This document shows, in pieces, positions 3,705 to 41,432 of a stretch of 64,000 bases of DNA. The position numbers and the translations under genes were made by a program. The notes below the pieces were generated by a model. The model was not told the DNA's origin and searched no databases. It saw nothing but the letters and a program-made list of their open reading frames with translations. How positions within the stretch are numbered: position 1 is the stretch's first letter; every line of letters begins with the position of its first letter. Source of the stretch: Escherichia coli (lineage in GTDB: Bacteria; Pseudomonadota; Gammaproteobacteria; Enterobacterales; Enterobacteriaceae); the NCBI RefSeq assembly GCF_003790525.1, contig NZ_CP033635.1. One strand, 5' to 3'.

Positions 3705-5576
3705 TTATCTACGCATGAATGCGTATTCTGATTGTGGTTGTGCGACGTAATGCCCCGGCCCGACGCATTGCAACGAGACGGCTGCAACCTCTTCGCCACG
3801 CAGATGAATATTGCTGGGAAGATCGTCCGACAGCAGTACACGCTGCGGTCGTTGTCGGGACGGTTCAGCGACCGGAACTGCCGCCAGTAATTTACGCGTA
3901 TAAGGATGCTGCGGGTTTTCGAAGACCGCGCGCCGTGGACCAATTTCAACAATTTGCCCGAGATACATCACCGCCACACGATGACTAATCCGCTCTACCA
4001 CGGCCATATCGTGGGAGATAAACAGATACGCAATGCCGAAATCACGCTGGAGATCGAGCAACAAGTTGATAATCTGCCCGCGAATAGAAACATCCAGCGC
4101 CGAGACGGCTTCGTCGGCAATGATCACTTTTGGATTCAATGCCAACGCGCGAGCAATGCAGATGCGCTGGCGCTGACCGCCGGAAAACTCATGCGGGTAA
4201 CGCCAGGCATGTTCAGGTAACAGGCCCACGCGCTCCAGCAACCACGCAACACGTGCAGCCGCTTCTTTACCTGGCAATAAACCGTGTACGCGCAGCGGTT
4301 CGATAATCGAATCACCGATGGTCTGACGTGGGTCCAGCGAAGCGTAAGGGTCCTGAAAAATAAACTGAATATCGCGGCGCAATGCCTGAAGTTTACCGGA
4401 TGACAAGGTATCGATTCGCTGACCGTTAAAGATAATTTCGCCGCCCTGCGATTCGACCAGGCGCAGCAACGCCCGCCCGGTAGTGGATTTACCGCTGCCA
4501 GACTCGCCCACCAGCGATAGCGTTTCACCAGGCCAGAGATCAAAACTGACTTTCTCAACGGCATGCACTTCCCGCGTTACGCGATTCAACAAACCGCTGC
4601 GCAAAGGGAAACGGGTGACCAGATTACGCACCCGTAAAACAGGTTCGCCATCCACCACCGTTTTCTGCTCGATGGGTGGCTCCTGTTTCGCTGGATGTTC
4701 AAGCGATATCAACGGGAAACGTCGGGGATAATCTAACCCTTTCATCGCACCAAGTTGCGGAACAGCAGCTAACAGCGCACGGGTATAAGGATGTTGCGGT
4801 GCATGAAAAATCTGTTCGACGCTACCCGTTTCCACCGCCTCGCCCTGATACATCACCAGAACCCGATCGGCAATCTCTGCCACCACGCCCATATCGTGAG
4901 TGATAAAGATAACGCCCATCGACATCTCTTTTTGCAATACTTTGATTAATTGCAGGATCTGCGCCTGAATAGTGACATCCAGCGCGGTGGTTGGCTCATC
5001 GGCAATCAGCACCGCCGGGCAGCATGACAGCGCCATCGCAATCATCACTCGCTGGCGCATCCCGCCAGAGAGTTGATGCGGATAACGTGAAAGAATGGTT
5101 TGTGCCTCCGGAATGCGTACCTGATCCAGCATCCGCTTCGCCTCGACCATCGCTTCTTCACGACTGGCGTTCTGATGCAGACGAATTGATTCGGCAATCT
5201 GTTCACCCACAGTAAATACCGGGTTCAGCGATGTCATCGGTTCCTGAAATATCATCGCCATATCCGCACCGCGCACATGGCGCATTTGTGCAGCGCTCTG
5301 CTCGCTAAGTTCAATCACTTCGCGACTGCGCCGCCGCAACAGCATTTTATCGCACTGTACTAAACCGCCCGCCTGTTCCAACAGACGCATCAATGCCAGC
5401 GCAGTCACTGACTTACCGGAGCCGGATTCGCCAACAATTGCCAGCGTCTCACCGCGTTGCAGGCTAAAAGAGAGATTGCGGACCGCAGCTATTTTCTGCT
5501 GGTCCTGCATAAAGGCAATATTCAGATTTTCAACCGCCAGCACATCACCGGCATCAAGTTCATCACTGTGTGGCAA
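3705..5576 (-). CDS. gsiA: glutathione ABC transporter ATP-binding protein GsiA (two fused ABC ATPase domains)
   Basis: Two Walker A motifs (GESGSGKS twice). Conserved N-terminus (L/M)PHSDELD begins at a TTG codon at 5576, 36 codons inside the ORF-track start; overlaps iaaA 3-prime end by 14 nt. Confidence 0.88.
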
Positions 5577-26056: not shown

Positions 26057-27250
26057 ATGCCACTTACTGTTCGACAAATTGAGTCGGCTAAACCTGCTGA
26101 CAAGGATTACAAACTTTCTGACGGTCAGGGCCTTTATCTTCTTGTCAAAAAATCCGGTGCCCGTTACTGGAATCTGAAGTACCGGTTTGCCGGTAAGGAA
26201 AAGAAACTGGTGATTGGTGTCTATCCTGACATATCACTGGCTCAGGCTCGTCAGAAGCGGGATGAAGCACGTAAACTTCTGGCTGAAGGTAAAGATCCGT
26301 CGTATGAAAAACAGGCGCGAAAACTTGCCATCAGGGAAAGTATGGCCTGCACATTTCGCACCATTGCAGAGGAGCTGCTTACTCATATGGCACGTCGATG
26401 GACAACAGGTTACCAGGCAGACCAGCGTGCAAGACTTGAAAATCATGTTTTCCCTGCTCTTGGAAACCGTCCTGTGACCGGGATCCGCCCCATGGAAATA
26501 CTGAACGTCCTGAGGACTATAGAAGAACAGGGAAAACTTGAAGCACTGCGTAAAACACGCCAGCTCTGTGCGCAGGTTTTTGATTATGCCATAGCAACAG
26601 GGCGTGCAACCGTTAATCCGGCATCGACACTCAGCGGGGTACTGCTTCCTCCTGAAAAACAACAGCGCAGGACGCTTTCTGAAGAACAGATAGGAGCTTT
26701 CATGTATCAGATAACGGCTTCCGGAAATCTGATGTCGCTGGCAACGCGGATGCTGGTTCTGACCGCTGTTCGCACCGGAGAACTGCGACTGGCAACCTGG
26801 GACGAAATTAATTTCACGGAGGCCCTGTGGGTTATTCCGAAAGAAAGAATGAAAATGCGACGACCGCACGTTGTGCCGCTTTCACGGCAGGTACTGGCGT
26901 TACTGGAGGAGATAAAAACACGCACTGAATCGCGTAATTCCGCCTTTATTATTCCTGGTGCATTCAGAAAAGATCTCCCGCGAAACCGCAAGTGTATCAA
27001 TGAATTCCTTGAGCAGTCAGGCTGGCATGCCCTGACAACAGCCCACGGATTTCGTCATACCTTCAGCACCATTCTCCATGACCATGATTTCAGCTCAGCC
27101 TGGATTGAACTCCAGCTTGCTCATGTTGATAAAAACGTCATGCGTGGCACTTATAACCATGCGCAATATCTGGATGGACGTCGTGAAATGATGCAGTGGT
27201 ACGCTGATTACATTGATTCACTTATGGAGAAAAACGTAAAAACGAAATAA
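26057..27250 (+). CDS. tyrosine site-specific integrase, phage P4 / CP4-57 IntA type
   Basis: 397-aa ORF with P4-integrase-like N-terminus and C-terminal catalytic HGFRHTF ... HxxR ... Y motifs. Confidence 0.9.
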   Translation: MPLTVRQIESAKPADKDYKLSDGQGLYLLVKKSGARYWNLKYRFAGKEKKLVIGVYPDISLAQARQKRDEARKLLAEGKDPSYEKQARKLAIRESMACTFRTIAEELLTHMARRWTTGYQADQRARLENHVFPALGNRPVTGIRPMEILNVLRTIEEQGKLEALRKTRQLCAQVFDYAIATGRATVNPASTLSGVLLPPEKQQRRTLSEEQIGAFMYQITASGNLMSLATRMLVLTAVRTGELRLATWDEINFTEALWVIPKERMKMRRPHVVPLSRQVLALLEEIKTRTESRNSAFIIPGAFRKDLPRNRKCINEFLEQSGWHALTTAHGFRHTFSTILHDHDFSSAWIELQLAHVDKNVMRGTYNHAQYLDGRREMMQWYADYIDSLMEKNVKTK

Positions 27251-35471: not shown

Positions 35472-35503
35472 GTTCTAATTTTACTCACTATAGGTACTGA
35501 ATT

Positions 35504-36418
35504 ATGCACTCAATAAAAAAAGTAACCATGCTCCTGGGGTGCCTCGCCCTCACCTGCTCGATAGCATTTCAGGCGAGTGCAACTGAAAAATTCAAGGTCA
35601 TTACAACATTTACCATCATCGCAGATATGGCCAAAAACGTGGCTGGAGATGCTGCAGAAGTCTCATCCATAACCAGGCCCGGTGCAGAAATTCATGAGTA
35701 TCAGCCTACCCCTGGCGATATTAAACGTGCGCAGGGGGCACAACTGATTCTCGCCAACGGTATGAATCTGGAATTGTGGTTCCAGCGCTTTTACCAGCAT
35801 CTCAGTGGGGTTCCAGAAGTGATTGTCTCTTCGGGTGTGACGCCAGTAGGGATCACCGAAGGCCCCTACGAGGGAAAACCTAACCCTCATGCCTGGATGT
35901 CGCCAGATAATGCTTTGATTTACGTCGATAATATTCGTGATGCGTTGATAAAATACGATCCGGCAAATGCAAAAACATACCAACGTAATGCCGATACTTA
36001 TAAAGCCAAGATTACCCAAACCCTTGCCCCCCTGCGTAAGCAGATTGCTGAACTCCCTGAGAATAAAAGATGGATGGTCACCAGTGAAGGGGCTTTTTCT
36101 TATCTCGCACGCGATTTGGGGCTAAAAGAGCTTTATCTGTGGCCGATAAATGCCGATCAACAAGGAACACCCCAGCAGGTACGTAAAGTGGTTGATATAG
36201 TGAAGAAAAATAATATCCCAGCGGTATTTAGTGAGAGTACGGTTTCCGATAAACCAGCGCGTCAGGTTGCGCGTGAAACCGGCGCACACTACGGCGGTGT
36301 GCTCTATGTCGATTCCCTGAGCACAGAAAACGGCCCGGTACCTACGTATATCGACCTTCTGAAGGTTACTACCAGTACGCTGGTGCAGGGAATTAAAGCC
36401 GGGAAAAGGGAGAAGTAA
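35504..36418 (+). CDS. sitA: metal (Mn/Fe) ABC transporter periplasmic binding protein, SitA/YfeA/MntC (TroA) family
   Basis: 304-aa ORF with signal peptide and TroA-like metal-binding fold; Fur and MntR boxes upstream as in sitABCD/yfeABCD operons. Confidence 0.75.
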   Translation: MHSIKKVTMLLGCLALTCSIAFQASATEKFKVITTFTIIADMAKNVAGDAAEVSSITRPGAEIHEYQPTPGDIKRAQGAQLILANGMNLELWFQRFYQHLSGVPEVIVSSGVTPVGITEGPYEGKPNPHAWMSPDNALIYVDNIRDALIKYDPANAKTYQRNADTYKAKITQTLAPLRKQIAELPENKRWMVTSEGAFSYLARDLGLKELYLWPINADQQGTPQQVRKVVDIVKKNNIPAVFSESTVSDKPARQVARETGAHYGGVLYVDSLSTENGPVPTYIDLLKVTTSTLVQGIKAGKREK

Positions 36419-36552
36419 TGATGCAATCTGCGGGTATTGTCGTTAATGGCGTTACTGTCACCTGGCGAAACGGGCAGAAAGCACTGCGCGATGCATCCTT
36501 CACAGTACCAGGCGGATCTATTGCCGCTCTGCTTGGGGTAAACGGTTCCGGT
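36418..36552 (+). pseudogene. truncated metal ABC transporter ATPase (sitB-like), first ~45 codons only
   Basis: ATGA overlap with sitA stop; N-terminus typical of an ABC ATPase (VTVTWRNGQKALRDASFTVPGGSIAALLGVNGSG) breaks inside Walker A (GSGE in place of GSGKST); downstream sequence is unrelated. Confidence 0.7.
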
Positions 36553-36900
36553 GAAATCGTCTTGACACGTTTCTGGGCTCGTCATCAGCGGTTGTTGCGA
36601 ATGATCGCCGCCCTGCGATGGTTGATTTATTTTATTGCGCCCCGGCGTCTGCCTTGCCAGGTACCGGAGGCGGGCTCTGAAGGACTGAGTAGGGTGAGCG
36701 CGTCAGGCCGCGAAGTACTGACACGGGAGTTTGTGGCAGGCAGTGAAGTCCTGACCAGGGTAAGGGAGGCGCTGACGTGCAGGTCCTGACTGTCAGCCAG
36801 GCGCATGGTGACTGACTTTCTCAATAACCCGCTGTCAGGCGCTCAACGCCCGACAGCAGGCCATGGCCCGGTGTGCAAAGACCTGACGGCAGGTGTTGTG

Positions 36901-37694: not shown

Positions 37695-38684
37695 TCAGTG
37701 GCTGATTTTTTTCAGCTGTTCTTCACTCAATCCCGTGATTTTCATGATGGTCTGAAGCCCCATTCCTTCAGCCAACATATTACGCGCCGTTTCCAGTTTG
37801 CCTTCCAGTTGTCCTTCGAGTCGCCCTTCGGCACGGCCTTCCATTCTGCCTTCCATTCTGCCTTCTAGCTTACCGCGCTCCATACCCTGGGCAATACCGC
37901 GCTCAAATCCCTTGACTTCCCCTTCCTGCTTCAGTTGTTCAGCCAGTGTCATTATGTTGCCCTCATGCTGTGGCAGCCGCTCCGCCAGCGTCTGCAAAAA
38001 CCTTACCGTCACATGTTCACTGCCGTTCAGCAGATAGTGGAACAGAGCCTTCGCCAGCTCTTCATTCAGTGAAGTCTGTATCAGCTGAACCAGCCTGTCC
38101 ATCTGCAGCATGATGTCGCGGCTGCGGCTGTGTTTCATCAGCAGCGTCAGTGCCCCCATTCGGCGGTGTTGCATTATCTCATCGTCATCCAGTACCGTCA
38201 CGTCCACCAGGTGGAACGGTCTGGTGTAGATTTTAGCAGCAAGTTCCGGATTTCTGAAACACTCCAGCCAGTTCATGCTGTACGGGTACGGGCTCCGCTC
38301 ACCGTGGTAGAATAACAGCGGGATCACCAGCGGCAGCTCATGGTGCTGTTCAAAGTGACGCTGCATCGCCGCCACCGCATATCTGAGCATCCTGAACGCC
38401 ATAAACGCGTTTTCCGTACTCTGGTGTTCCGCGAGGCAATAAATATACCCCTCCTCACCGCTGACGGTCTTCATGCTGAACAGCGCATCGCACGCATACT
38501 GTTTCAGATCCTGGTCCACAAAGGTACAGGGCTCCAGCCGCAGCGTCGACAGATCACACAACTGCCGGTATTCCGCCGGAAGATGCAGTTCAACAAAATC
38601 ACGGGCCACCTCTGCTGAGGCCATAAACGCCCTGAAGGCGGCATCATGCGGCGTGGGCGTATTTTTCTCTTTCCTGCTGCTCAC
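37695..38684 (-). CDS. Rpn-family (YhgA-like) recombination-promoting nuclease / PD-(D/E)XK putative transposase
   Basis: 329-aa ORF with characteristic Rpn N-terminus (HDAAFRAFMASAEVARDFVELHLP) and C-terminal EGR(M/A/L) tetrapeptide repeats. Confidence 0.7.
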   Translation of the reverse strand: MSSRKEKNTPTPHDAAFRAFMASAEVARDFVELHLPAEYRQLCDLSTLRLEPCTFVDQDLKQYACDALFSMKTVSGEEGYIYCLAEHQSTENAFMAFRMLRYAVAAMQRHFEQHHELPLVIPLLFYHGERSPYPYSMNWLECFRNPELAAKIYTRPFHLVDVTVLDDDEIMQHRRMGALTLLMKHSRSRDIMLQMDRLVQLIQTSLNEELAKALFHYLLNGSEHVTVRFLQTLAERLPQHEGNIMTLAEQLKQEGEVKGFERGIAQGMERGKLEGRMEGRMEGRAEGRLEGQLEGKLETARNMLAEGMGLQTIMKITGLSEEQLKKISH

Positions 38685-38918
38685 TGTTTATCTCTTCTGA
38701 ACCAGGTAACATTAACAGAACATGTTTCAGGATATCCGCGCAGTGCGGAACATTACGGCTCACCACTGTGACGGCGGATCATCGCCACCCAGTATCCGAC
38801 AGACCCCTTACTTTGTTCGTAAACATCCTTCCTGCCCCCCTGAATCTCCAGACAACCAATATCACTTAAATAAGTGATAGTCTTAATACTAGTTTTTAGA
38901 CTAGTCATTGGAGAACAG

Positions 38919-39284
38919 ATGATTGATGTCTTAGGGCCGGAGAAACGCAGACGGCGTACCACACAGGAAAAGATCGCAATTGTTCAGCAGAGTTTTGAAC
39001 CGGGAATGACGGTCTCCCTTGTAGCCCGGCAACACGGTGTGGCAGCCAGCCAGCTATTTCTCTGGCGCAAGCAATACCAGGAGGGAAGTCTTACTGCTGT
39101 GGCCGCAGGAGAACAGGTCGTTCCTGCCTCTGAACTTGCTGCTGCCATGAAGCAGATTAAAGAACTCCAGCGCCTGCTCGGCAAAAAAACGATGGAAAAT
39201 GAACTCCTCAAAGAAGCCGTTGAATATGGACGGGCAAAAAAGTGGATAGCGCACGCGCCCTTATTGCCCGGGGATGGGGAGTAA
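38919..39284 (+). CDS. insC: IS2 transposase OrfA (InsC)
   Basis: [56 protein letters not shown]...; ORF-track ORF trimmed to Met 16. Confidence 0.9.
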
Positions 39285-40147
39285 GCTTAGTCAGCCGTTG
39301 TCTCCGGGTGTCGCGTGCGCAGTTGCACGTCATTCTCAGACGAACCGATGACTGGATGGATGGCCGCCGCAGTCGTCACACTGATGATACGGATGTGCTT
39401 CTCCGTATACACCATGTTATCGGAGAGCTGCCCACGTATGGTTATCGTCGGGTATGGGCGCTGCTTCGCAGACAGGCAGAACTTGATGGTATGCCTGCGA
39501 TCAATGCCAAACGTGTTTACCGGATCATGCGCCAGAATGCGCTGTTGCTTGAGCGAAAACCTGCTGTACCGCCATCGAAACGGGCACATACAGGCAGAGT
39601 GGCTGTGAAAGAAAGTAATCAGCGATGGTGCTCTGACGGGTTCGAGTTCCGCTGTGATAACGGAGAAAAACTGCGAGTCACGTTCGCGCTGGACTGCTGT
39701 GACCGTGAGGCACTGCACTGGGCGGTCACTACGGGCGGCTTCAACAGTGAAACAGTACAGGACGTCATGCCAGGAGCGGTGGAACGCCGCTTCGGCAACG
39801 ATCTTCCGGCGTCTCCAGTAGAGTGGCTGACGGATAATGGTTCATGCTACCGGGCTAATGAAACACGGCAGTTTGCCCGGATGTTGGGGCTTGAACCGAA
39901 GAGCACGGCGGTGCGGAGTCCGGAGAGTAACGGCATAGCAGAGAGCTTCGTGAAAACGATAAAGCGTGACTACATCAGTATCATGCCTAAACCAGACGGG
40001 TTAACGGCAGCAAAGAACCTTGCAGAGGCGTTCGAGCATTATAACGAATGGCATCCGCATAGTGCACTGGGTTATCGCTCGCCACGGGAATATCTGCGGC
40101 AGCAGGCCAGTAATGGGTTAAGTGATAACAGGTGTCTGGAAATATAG
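39242..40147 (+). CDS. insD: IS2 transposase OrfB (InsD), DDE catalytic subunit
   Basis: 301-aa ORF overlapping insC in the -1 frame, as in IS3-family frameshift arrangement. Confidence 0.9.
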
Positions 40148-40291
40148 GGGCAAATCCACCTGAATCTGAGGCAGCACCTGGCACGGCTGGGACGGAAGTC
40201 GCTGTCGTTTTCAAAATCGGTGGAGCTGCATGACAAAGTCATCAGGCATTATCTGAACATAAAACACTATCAATAAGTTGGAGTCATTACC

Positions 40292-40441
40292 GTGTTCCCG
40301 ACAGACGACTCGGTGAAAAAAGTGGTGTGGCTGGCAATCCAGTCTGCGTCCCAGAAATGGACGATGCCGTTGAAGGACTGGCGAATGGCAATGAGCCGCT
40401 TTATTATCGAGTTCGGTGACCGCCTGGACGGTCACTTCTGA
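40292..40441 (+). pseudogene. IS256-family (mutator-type) transposase C-terminal remnant
   Basis: VFPTDDSVKKVVWLAIQSASQKWTMPLKDWRMAMSRFIIEFGDRLDGHF* matches the conserved C-terminal tail of IS256-family transposases; immediately right of IS2. Confidence 0.6.
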
Positions 40442-40473
40442 GAAAAGGCATTTACACAGAATCCTAAACAGGC

Positions 40474-41211
40474 TCATGTACAGCGCTGTACCGGGCAATG
40501 GGTAATACCGGTCACAACCGGTAACCCCAGAGACAATGCAACTGTTTTTAACGCAATATACTGGCCGGATGTATCACCCCGGGCAGCCTGAAAACACCTT
40601 TCCACCCGGCATTGTCCGTCAGCACTTATCACCCGCCATGTCTGTTGCAATAAATCCACCCGTTGCGAACATTCTTCATCAACCGTGGCACTGACCCGTG
40701 GATGGCAAATGCTCGTCTGGCTGAGCAGCAACAGGCATCGCATTGTTGCTCCTCCATGTTGTTCCCGCAACCAGCGTAATACCACCGGTGGTGCTGGACT
40801 GGCCGTGTGATTACGTTCAGTAATACGCTCGTGCACCTGTCGGTAAAAGGAAGTACAGAATGCATGAATCTGTTGTCCGTTGATGTTTCCTTCTGCCGAA
40901 TGGAGTGTGAAGTGGACGGCCAGCAGACGCGGCCAGTGATCCACCGCCTGCTGAATAAAACGCCGGATTTCCACCGGCTCTGAAAGTACGGTTTCGGTTA
41001 TTTGCACGATTTGATCCCCTTGAATGTTGCTGAACCGGTGTCGGTACGCAGGAAAGCACGCCGAGACCGGTACGATGCCTGTTACAGCGAAGAACGAGGA
41101 ATGACAGACGGGGGCAGCAGGTCGCCAGCACCAGGGACAGGGCTGATTTCCACAATACCAACGCTGGTATTTTGCACATTGCCAGCGTACCGGCATTACA
41201 ACACGTTTCAT
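40474..41211 (-). CDS. hypothetical protein, weakly YagK/YfjJ-like (third paralog)
   Basis: 259-aa ORF trimmed to Met 15; central segment RLLAVHFTLHSAEG... resembles the RVDLRFP-type region of the two adjacent YagK/YfjJ-like proteins; competing frames exist. Confidence 0.4.
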   Translation of the reverse strand: MKRVVMPVRWQCAKYQRWYCGNQPCPWCWRPAAPVCHSSFFAVTGIVPVSACFPAYRHRFSNIQGDQIVQITETVLSEPVEIRRFIQQAVDHWPRLLAVHFTLHSAEGNINGQQIHAFCTSFYRQVHERITERNHTASPAPPVVLRWLREQHGGATMRCLLLLSQTSICHPRVSATVDEECSQRVDLLQQTWRVISADGQCRVERCFQAARGDTSGQYIALKTVALSLGLPVVTGITHCPVQRCT

Positions 41212-41432
41212 GCTGCTGCCCCTCGTGATGCCTCGATTCGTTGCTGCATCCACTGCTCCACTTCACTTTTGTACCAGCGGCTGCTGCGCCCCAGTTTGAT
41301 GGGTTTAGGGAAATGGCCTTCACTGATCAGCTTGTAAAACCATTTGTCGGTCATACCAGTGAAGCTGGTGATGTAGTTCATGTCGATCAGGGGATCGTCG
41401 GCACGCAGCAATACGCTGTCGTGACCTGTCAT
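41208..41432 (-). CDS. alpA: AlpA-family (P4 Vis-like) transcriptional regulator
   Basis: Small ORF with FTGMTDKWFYKLISEGHFPKPIKLGRSSRWYKSEVEQWM, the AlpA/Vis HTH signature; start codon uncertain (Met 5 or Met 22). Confidence 0.7.
   Translation of the reverse strand: MTGHDSVLLRADDPLIDMNYITSFTGMTDKWFYKLISEGHFPKPIKLGRSSRWYKSEVEQWMQQRIEASRGAAA

Follow-up and report, generated by a model that had tools for sequence, protein, structure and literature searches.

The question raised by this locus is whether its IS2 copy marks a recent insertion or a place where insertion sequences have been cut and rejoined. In the window, a 64,000-nucleotide stretch of an Escherichia coli contig (NZ_CP033635.1), a sequence-only reading had recognized an IS2 at 38828-40158 with both terminal inverted repeats and intact insC and insD, judged it probably active, and placed it in or beside an older IS remnant, a 50-codon C-terminal tail of IS256-family type beyond an anonymous spacer of 134 bp. 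The likely answer, with that likelihood applying jointly to the whole of the four-step explanation given below, is that region 38828-40475 consists of four stacked IS junctions, each a rearrangement scar, and a recent IS2 insertion is ruled against. The island is an ordinary decayed one, the same annotation being present in strain CM2. Immediately upstream, the CM2 annotation has transposase fragments, of ISAs1 and IS66 among others, in keeping with the earlier description of the island's centre as an IS graveyard, and deletions of the kind that was expected there do distinguish related genomes, precisely at the IS ends described here. The site is a point at which related avian and human E. 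coli islands vary by deletions.

The IS2 itself comprises the following.

38832-40158, plus strand: IS2 positions 5-1331 of the 1331-bp element, with the canonical first four bases, TAGA, missing.
38919-39284, plus strand: insC (orfA), 121 aa, intact, Pfam HTH_Tnp_1.
39236-39242, plus strand: A6G programmed -1 frameshift window, GGGCAAAAAAGTGG, identified by sequence and as in Lewis et al. 2012 (PMC3299598).
39242-40147, plus strand: insD (orfB), 301 aa, intact, with the DDE integrase core, Pfam rve, rve_3 and HTH_21.
40118-40158, plus strand: IS2 right inverted repeat (IRR), the donor end, 41 bp with a CA-3' end, its tip as in K-12 IS2A (inverted-repeat pair I1).

The reading of insC and insD as intact holds: the overlapping orfA (HTH) and orfB (DDE/rve) are joined by the A6G -1 frameshift expected of IS2, their Pfam domains are found, and PGAP, on the identical sequence in CM2, annotates a complete IS2-family transposase with programmed frameshift. 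IS2 belongs to the IS2 group of the IS3 family; nucleotide identity to K-12 IS2A (MG1655) is 97.06% over 1327 bp, and the A6G window, the 41-bp IRR, the internal part of the left inverted repeat (IRL) and the P(IRL) region are shared with it. The InsC protein is exactly that of K-12, all nucleotide differences being synonymous, and InsD has seven residue differences from its K-12 counterpart. Synonymous changes that six other IS2 copies do not have are clustered in the 5′ 360 bp, and the first 419 nt have a 100% match only in CM2 and Br_112, the next best being 98.3%. Among 5,426 complete E. coli genomes there is no identical sister copy. The right end is canonical, ...GGGGCAAATCCA, and stops exactly at 40158, as had been proposed; its tip, ...TATAGGGGCAAATCCA, is the same as in K-12, with one substitution 27 bp inward. 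While K-12 IS2A has ATTAC on both sides as its 5-bp duplication, the window's IS2 is without a matching one, having ACATC or CCTTC on the left and CCTGA on the right.

What adjoins that right end is not the IS256-family remnant. The spacer is 133 bp (40159-40291), one less than had been counted, and it is IS1.

40159-40291, plus strand: IS1 fragment, terminal 133 bp, positions 636-768, an exact match to complete IS1A (CM2 locus L010).
40292-40475, plus strand: 3′ 184 bp of IS1414 (IS256 family), holding transposase codons 354-402 with their stop, and the right terminal repeat, which ends ...AAACAGGCTC.
40474-41253, minus strand: Gp2/YfjJ-like gene of the island backbone, from the ORF list, with homologues annotated as inovirus Gp2 family.

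The IS1 terminal inverted repeat, GGTAATGACTCCAACTTATTGAT, gives one 47-nt exact match, at 40245-40291 on the minus strand, where none is expected by chance, and the terminal repeat lies at 40269-40291. Identity to complete IS1A is 100% across these 133 bp, inverted repeat included, but of the 768 bp with insA and insB only they are left; the fragment is without coding capacity and is cut exactly at the IS2 IRR tip. PGAP in CM2 calls it 'IS1 family transposase, incomplete', with the N-terminus missing. In about 24 genomes a complete IS1A stands at the identical IS1::IS1414 junction, 100% identical. The transposase gene of IS1414 is cut by IS1, not by IS2.

The family assignment of the tail was right, with one codon fewer than had been given: the 49-codon ORF at 40292-40441 is identical at 48 of its 49 residues to residues 354-402 of the 402-aa IS1414 transposase (E=6e-34), and the DNA is 99.5% identical to annotated IS1414 copies, so the fragment flanking on this side is IS-derived, as had been read. 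The identification comes from direct comparison with the annotated IS1414 transposase, the 49-aa piece alone giving no Pfam match. Compared with IS1414, the last 49 codons and the 34-bp 3′ end including the terminal repeat are kept, but only 184 of about 1357 bp are left, the cut by IS1 falling at codon 353/354; it is not a complete IS256-family element, which would have a terminal repeat at each end and a duplication of 8-9 bp. As the first step of the proposed history, IS1 would have entered the IS1414 transposase gene between codons 353 and 354, and what lay upstream in IS1414 would have been lost later.

At the other end of the tail, five loci share sequence up to 40475 and diverge beyond, the IS1414 tip having at least three different right flanks. 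The window's right flank starts at a point that is continuous in LH50-c and TUM1886 DNA. The stop codon of the Gp2/YfjJ-like gene (40474-40476) spans the tip junction, and the native last five or so codons are lost, the native stop in LH50-c lying 17 nt past the breakpoint (positions 4984 and 5001 of locus L014). The breakpoint itself, with the IS1414 tip at the ProQ|Gp2 intergenic point, is observed; the last of the four steps would be this joining, with the removal of several kilobases by a mechanism that may be of the tip-anchored kind considered below. The window's exact right flank is in no genome of the collection, the best match being about 94-95%, and the last steps are for this reason reconstructed from paralogous islands. 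Two candidate earlier states were set aside. The complete IS1414 of TUM1886 is not the in-situ ancestor of the tail: at base level it inserted independently, 42 bp away, and is flanked by an 8-bp duplication, GGTCACAA, whereas the window's IS1414 tip junction shows no evidence of one; the IS256-family element by the sigma-HTH gene of LH50-c is only about 76% identical to IS1414, a different element and not a pre-IS1 state.

On the left, the start at 38828 is nominal. IS2 homology begins at 38832, and of the two inverted repeats that had been read as present the right one stands and the left has an altered tip, without TAGA.

37695-38684, minus strand: Rpn-family (YhgA-like) nuclease gene, intact, the left neighbour of the IS cluster, Pfam Transposase_31 E=6.5e-74.
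38753-38845, minus strand: remnant of a UvrD-like helicase/ankyrin-repeat gene, its last approximately 31 codons, truncated by the fusion to IS2.
38832-38852, plus strand: hybrid 21-mer CTGCCCCCCTGAATCTCCAGA, an IRL-like host sequence fused in register to IRL positions 5-25.

The canonical 42-bp IRL starts TAGACTGGCCC (the 11-bp cleavage domain) and the window has CTTCCTGCCCC: positions 1-4 (TAGA to CTTC) and position 8 (G to C) differ, positions 9-42 being canonical. In six other IS2 copies the start is TAGACTGG throughout, and alignments of other IS2 copies, from E. coli genomes and plasmids, to the window start only at 38832. Some matches start 12-15 bp further left, and an origin of the left end from a different IS2-like element was considered; these are chance flank similarity beside canonical TAGACTGG ends. 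The hybrid was mapped in an alignment of three canonical IS2 copies with the LH50-c locus that is free of IS2, CM2 and the window, which places the crossover somewhere from 38835, a host C, to 38845/38846, where the T is that of IS2. In a scan for IRL matches the host 21-mer scores 19/21 and that of the window 20/21.

Comparison with islands lacking IS2, suggested earlier as a route to the sequence before insertion, gave the left side through LH50-c. The IS2-free locus of LH50-c and GF60 reads ...CATCCTTCCTGCCCCCCAGAATCTCCAGAATGTAC..., with which the window agrees as far as the C-run, changing to IS2 at the T. The host 21-mer is at the 3′ end of the helicase gene, adjoining the Rpn gene, itself annotated as Rpn family in CM2, Br_112_kylling and LH50-c. 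The full (frameshifted) helicase of LH50-c has the C-terminus ...YILEILGGRKDVYEQSKGSVGYWVAMIRRHSGEP before its stop, which matches the window ORF at 38753-38962 (minus strand), ...LEIQGGRKDVYEQ...GEP before its stop. In LH50-c the 21-mer is genuine coding sequence (ILEILGGRK), colinear and without indels with paralogues about 85% identical (LVEMLGGKK). A plasmid search did not find a copy of the left junction, and two species-representative scans, one with the conserved flanks and one with a codon-degenerate peptide pattern, did not find the helicase site outside E. coli.

LH50-c and GF60 also have a canonical IS2 (TAGACTGG...), in the same orientation and about 62 kb downstream of the 21-mer, adjoining genes for a TRAP transporter. 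As these two genomes keep both the host 21-mer and, downstream of it and directly oriented, the canonical IS2, a short-homology deletion scar is the best reading of the left junction. In the second step of the proposed history, an IS2 whose relatives lie just left of the TRAP-transporter operon would have lost its left neighbourhood, with about 62 kb deleted, perhaps by recombination between IRL positions 5-25 and the 19/21-identical, directly oriented 21-mer in the UvrD-like gene. The hybrid IRL without TAGA and the precursor configuration are both observed; the recombination mechanism itself we only infer. RecA usually requires more homology than 21 bp with two mismatches, and 62 kb is a long distance for replication slippage to span. 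The a priori chance of a 19/21 IRL look-alike within 62 kb, about 6e-4, also counts against the model. If the reading is right, the junction is a clean natural case in which an IS end and its look-alike in host DNA recombined in register, with the precursor arrangement still present elsewhere, and it is suited to testing whether transposase binding aids long-range, short-homology deletions.

Br_112_kylling has the hybrid junction and a 100%-identical IS2, followed by the gene for the TRAP small permease, and its TRAP flank starts 1.57 kb beyond the IRR position of LH50-c and GF60. The window's IS2 differs from the TRAP-side IS2 of LH50-c at only three sites over positions 556-1331, but the IS2 copies of LH50-c and GF60 are overall only 96.7-98.0% identical to it, so that orthology would need gene conversion across the 5′ 40% at a later time. 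The TRAP breakpoint of Br_112 is present without IS2 in strain 144 and some 12 more genomes, which the model leaves unexplained. The IRR has four kinds of right flank, those of LH50-c, of GF60 (11 bp further), of Br_112 (1.57 kb further) and of CM2 and the window (IS1). Several neighbours at the right tip of IS2, and likewise at the tip of IS1414, are as expected for IS-tip-anchored deletions, in which, as here, the endpoint at the IS tip is constant while related genomes differ in the other.

In the third step, the intact IRR, as the donor end of IS2, would then have been joined to IS1 position 636, either by an intramolecular event anchored at the IRR tip or by recombination with a sister IS2 inserted there. 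The latter route can be taken as a full alternative for this junction: a sister IS2 transposed into IS1 at the target CCTGA, and homologous recombination between the two IS2 copies followed, with no one-ended event at the IRR. IS2 copy numbers are high, and the IS1 by the IS1414 tail is a repeated target of insertion sequences, 24A16CRGN010 having independent IS2 and IS100 insertions in the same IS1. However, the Br_112 and window IS2 copies are 100% identical to the last base, while in other copies differences appear no more than 27 bp from the tip, so the partner must have been a near-identical copy and none was seen. The reciprocal product was not found either, and CM2 is absent among the 30 genomes listed with the TRAP flank, out of 1,476 matching records. 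We regard this alternative as possible but rather unlikely.

A different alternative concerns the left hybrid, which may have been transposase-dependent: OrfA and OrfAB would bind the host look-alike and synapse it with real IS2 ends, with resolution in register by a strand switch during copy-out replication or by IEE-type microhomology joining. Binding by transposase would explain so improbable a partner sequence, and the likeness is concentrated in the transposase-bound part of the IRL (positions 12-25, 13 of 14 bases identical). The IRR, moreover, adjoins a 9-mer in IS1, CCTGAATCT, that is the same as IRL positions 12-20. IS911 is known for insertion beside IR-like sequences. Strand switching to near-end microhomologies, with deletions intruding into the IS, has been proposed for copy-out/paste-in elements (bioRxiv 10.1101/2023.06.07.543989). 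As in the IEE-associated events of IS629 and ISApl1, one junction lies on shared homology a few bases inside the IS, but those cases use microhomologies of 2-6 bp, whereas the homology here is unusually long, at 19/21, and falls on the very part of the IRL that transposase binds. In canonical strand transfer, however, it is tips that are joined, which gives no in-register exchange, and the dependence on transposase is unlikely. A bolder form is a good deal less probable still, namely that the host mimic of the IRL acts as a decoy end which IS2 proteins synapse with an IS2 tens of kilobases away, promoting in-register exchange. Were it true, inverted-repeat look-alikes in host genes would be predictable hotspots for deletions driven by IS3-family elements, and the same preference would have left another footprint in the IRL-like 9-mer beside the IRR.

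The reverse direction, with the 21-mer of LH50-c and GF60 as an IS2 footprint and the window as the older state, is scarcely credible: all seven differences of the LH50-c 21-mer from its paralogues are toward the IS2 sequence, but this '7 of 7' is the same 19/21 similarity recounted, the LH50-c gene is colinear with those paralogues with frame and a conservative peptide kept, and the window is without the other 2.8 kb of the helicase gene, which LH50-c could not have regained.

Equally improbable is the simple insertion of an active IS2 in or directly beside an IS256-family remnant, the explanation first offered: it has in its favor the intact genes and IRR and the IS256-family tail 133 bp to the right, and against it the absent 5-bp duplication, the hybrid IRL tip, the left flank, which is the 3′ end of the helicase gene and not IS DNA (the LH50-c empty site refutes this side), and the IS1 that adjoins IS2 and had cut IS1414 before IS2 came. 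Older IS debris does lie nearby, as had been stated.

That the element is probably active is doubtful, as its IRL cleavage domain is damaged and it has no identical sister copy. In IS2 the outer 11 bp at each end form the cleavage domain, and accuracy of the 1-bp spacer, the only one from which a functional Pjunc arises, depends on the IRL A element (Lewis et al. 2012, PMC3299598). Five of these 11 bases in the window's IRL are foreign, and they would include the -10 hexamer of the minicircle-junction promoter. With its cleavage domain so altered, autonomous and accurate transposition of this copy is probably impaired; as minicircles were reported to form in no lower yield when the IRL A element was mutated at random (Lewis et al., PMC3299598), the loss of activity is something we infer. 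The copy still encodes OrfA and OrfAB and remains able to supply transposase, and rearrangements beside it can still be promoted by its IRR. The correct annotation is an IS2 whose left end is a hybrid lacking its tip and whose flanks are non-cognate; an IS1 end fragment comes next, and after it the tail of IS1414. The copy is not to be counted as evidence for recent IS2 activity.

A large chromosomal inversion across the window, suggested by CM2, where the left part of the island is beside lptG, was also considered and rejected: the flanks are contiguous core genes and the island is simply inserted. In the window the flank is glnH, the glnPQ side being taken from the gene order of K-12 and KFu014.

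Both genes of the IS2 copy are intact, as the sequence-only reading had claimed: the two ORFs and the A6G frameshift window are present, and Pfam detects HTH_Tnp_1 in InsC and, in InsD, the domains rve, rve_3 and HTH_21. The features of the cluster are as follows.

38832-40158, plus strand: IS2, 97.06% identical to E. coli K-12 IS2A over 1327 bp
38919-39284, plus strand: insC, protein identical to K-12 InsC
39242-40147, plus strand: insD, 7 of 301 residues differing from K-12
39236-39242: A6G frameshift window
40159-40291: IS1 fragment of 133 bp (IS1 positions 636-768), identical to complete IS1A, with the terminal repeat at its end
from 40292: IS1414 tail, codons 354-402 of the 402-residue transposase (48 of 49 identical), stop codon and 34 bp to the tip

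The further claim, that both terminal inverted repeats are present, holds for the right one (IRR, the donor end), which has the canonical tip ...GGGGCAAATCCA, but not for the left one (IRL). Canonical IS2 starts TAGACTGGCCCCCTGAATCTCCAGA and the copy here CTTCCTGCCCCCCTGAATCTCCAGA, its first four bases and position 8 differing from six other IS2 copies; among 5,426 complete E. coli genomes and the plasmid collection, the homology of all other IS2 copies starts only at 38832. K-12 IS2A is bordered by the 5-bp duplication ATTAC; a 5-bp target duplication was sought at the flanks of the present copy and is absent (left ACATC or CCTTC versus right CCTGA). The proposed simple insertion of IS2 in or beside an IS256-family remnant needs three corrections: this was no simple insertion, IS1 is what lies directly beside IS2, and the left tip is a recombination hybrid.

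Strains LH50-c and GF60 have the same left flank without IS2, and there the sequence runs on as ...CATCCTTCCTGCCCCCCAGAATCTCCAGAATGTACGG...; the host 21-mer at this point is identical to IRL positions 5-25 at 19 of 21 bases. In the window, IRL position 8 is C as in the host and position 14 is T as in IS2, so the exchange point lies in the C-run between them, in register; the left end is hybrid instead of a true terminus. Outside the window this exact junction is found in only two genomes, CM2 and Br_112_kylling. The 21-mer lies, on the minus strand, within the last 30 codons of a gene for a UvrD-like helicase with ankyrin repeats, of which the window retains only the final ~31 codons (38753-38845), and encodes ILEILGGRK; about 110 genomes have paralogues ~85% identical that align without indels and have LVEMLGGKK at the equivalent place, where their DNA is like IRL at only 12 of 21 positions. 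The reverse direction, an IS2 origin of the 21-mer, is rejected, as an IS2 scar would not keep frame, length and a conservative peptide, all of which are kept.

The apparent precursor survives. LH50-c and GF60 have a canonical IS2 (TAGACTGG...) directly left of a TRAP-transporter operon; it has the same orientation as the 21-mer and lies ~62 kb downstream of it. In Br_112_kylling the hybrid junction leads into an IS2 with 100% identity to that of the window, and right after IRR comes the TRAP small-permease gene, its sequence beginning 1.57 kb past the IRR point of LH50-c and GF60; Br_112_kylling thus corresponds to LH50-c with two stretches removed, the 62 kb from 21-mer to IRL and 1.57 kb beside IRR. 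Recombination between the two 21-bp direct repeats would explain the left junction most economically; the hybrid is in register and both partners stand in direct orientation, while the enzymology we infer. A chance 19/21 match has a probability of 4.4e-10 per site, ~6e-4 over 62 kb in all IRL registers and ~0.1 for a whole genome. Homology clearly guided the event, and the prior presence of the 21-mer was either a lucky accident or a reflection of something more. The window IS2 and the LH50-c TRAP-side IS2 differ at just three sites in positions 556-1331, with the 23 remaining internal differences clustered in positions 88-555, and we read the two as probable orthologues whose 5′ part was later gene-converted. 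At 38915-39185 (IS2 positions ~88-358) there is a dense cluster of ~17 insC substitutions, all synonymous and none present in six other IS2 copies, which suggests that the copy is a mosaic, formed by gene conversion with a diverged IS2 relative as donor.

On the right, the 134 bp said to precede an IS256-family tail are a 133-bp IS1 end, and the tail itself is confirmed as that of IS1414, its tip ...AAACAGGCTC at 40475. An identical IS1::IS1414 junction with complete IS1A occurs in ~24 genomes, and so IS1 cut IS1414 first and the joining of IS2 to IS1 came later; the junction of IRR with IS1 position 636 is found only in CM2 besides the window. CM2 is 99.9% identical over the whole region, and its NCBI annotation gives, consecutively, a complete IS2-family transposase (programmed frameshift) followed by two incomplete ones, of IS1 and of the IS256 family. 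IS2, IS1 and IS1414 are all well-known types, and a public genome already carries an annotation of their arrangement, so the finding, though real, is an ordinary one; what is mildly unusual is only the long in-register IRL look-alike junction and its surviving precursor. The nine IS1 bases right after the IRR tip (40159-40167, CCTGAATCT) equal IRL positions 12-20 (38839-38847), for which the chance is ~5e-4 to 5e-3 by a post-hoc estimate. IS3-family elements tend to insert beside end-like sequences, and the match could reflect this tendency or coincidence. In strain 24A16CRGN010 (L012 2710-6700) the same IS1 beside the IS1414 tail has independently taken up an IS100 and a further IS2, the latter inserted elsewhere than here, making this IS1 a repeated landing pad.

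Among related genomes IRR has four distinct right neighbours: GTCTGAGAATTCATCG in LH50-c, CATCGTTCG in GF60 (11 bp further on in the same DNA), ATACCTG in Br_112_kylling (1.57 kb further) and IS1 from position 636 in CM2 and the window. None of these IS2 copies has a target duplication, and the left flanks in LH50-c and GF60 are unlike each other. For the IS1414 tip the number of neighbours is at least three. In the window the tip is joined to a point that, in LH50-c and TUM1886, lies in unbroken DNA with a ProQ/FinO pseudogene on one side and a Gp2/YfjJ-like gene on the other, so several kb of those genomes are missing here. A series of junctions that share an IS tip while their distal endpoints vary is the classical mark of adjacent deletions promoted by the IS, as is well established for IS1 and IS2. 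A model of such deletions by copy-out/paste-in elements is summarised in bioRxiv 10.1101/2023.06.07.543989; individual steps may alternatively have occurred by recombination between IS copies. At 40474-40491 the Gp2/YfjJ-like ORF (minus strand) stops at a TGA spanning the IS1414 tip junction, with its native last ~5 codons lost. A perfect 14-bp palindrome, GTACAGCGCTGTAC, begins 2 nt past the breakpoint, and LH50-c has a related palindrome, AACAGCGCTGTT, 20-30 bp across it on the other side. In strain 144 (L019 3500/3501) and ~12 other genomes the TRAP small-permease gene is truncated at the exact nucleotide that abuts IRR in Br_112_kylling (L002 7459/7460). In these genomes IS2 is absent at that point, and to the left lies other DNA, an MgtC/SapB gene; this may represent IS2 loss with adjacent deletion.

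Whether this IS2 is probably active, as had been supposed, has two sides. Its coding capacity is intact and apparently under purifying selection, since every insC nucleotide change is synonymous. The cleavage domain is the outer 11 bp of each end, and IRL is the recipient end during circle formation; its A element, positions 2, 5 and 7 above all, sets the 1-bp spacer, from which alone comes the functional minicircle-junction promoter (Pjunc) needed at the insertion step; random A-element mutations do not reduce circle yield (Lewis et al. 2012, PMC3299598). From the geometry, in which the 1-bp junction spacer yields a 17-bp promoter spacer, we (not that paper) infer that the Pjunc -10 hexamer is TAGACT, IRL positions 1-6, where the window has CTTCCT. 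With five of the 11 IRL cleavage-domain bases foreign, and the first 419 nt 100% identical only in CM2 and Br_112_kylling (next best 98.3%), accurate autonomous transposition is probably impaired. IRR has evidently taken part in rearrangements after the hybrid arose.

The surroundings are laid out as follows.

first ~25.8 kb: core genes gsiAB ... ybiW ... opgE ... dps, glnH, 100% identical to many strains
~25869: island start, ~30 bp past glnH
26057-27250: tyrosine recombinase
last ~14 kb: core genes ybiO, rlmF and fiu, annotated under matches

By K-12/KFu014 gene order glnPQ would also fall in the last ~14 kb. An ARAGORN scan of the window gives no tRNA gene. CM2 has this end of the island (99.8% identity from 25869 onward) 63 bp past lptG instead, so the same integrase module sits at two different non-tRNA chromosomal sites. 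The island holds sitA, truncated sitB, fragments of ISAs1, IS66 and further transposases and one of RelE, then the Rpn gene (an Rpn-family, YhgA-like nuclease gene) and the IS cluster, and the description of its centre as decaying and IS-rich was fair. At ~35500-36750 (CM2 annotation L001 8804-9864) sitA is intact, sitB is cut after ~49 codons and sitCD are absent, followed by IS66 and RelE fragments; judged by gene content this metal-uptake operon is non-functional. LH50-c has a complete sitABCD in another island. In the 3′ part of the Rpn gene (37700-37870, minus strand) the protein terminates in successive EGR(M/A/L)/EGQL/EGKL repeats, to which Br_112_kylling aligns in overlapping segments, its gene being longer (1059 versus 930-990 nt), which indicates that the repeats probably vary in copy number.
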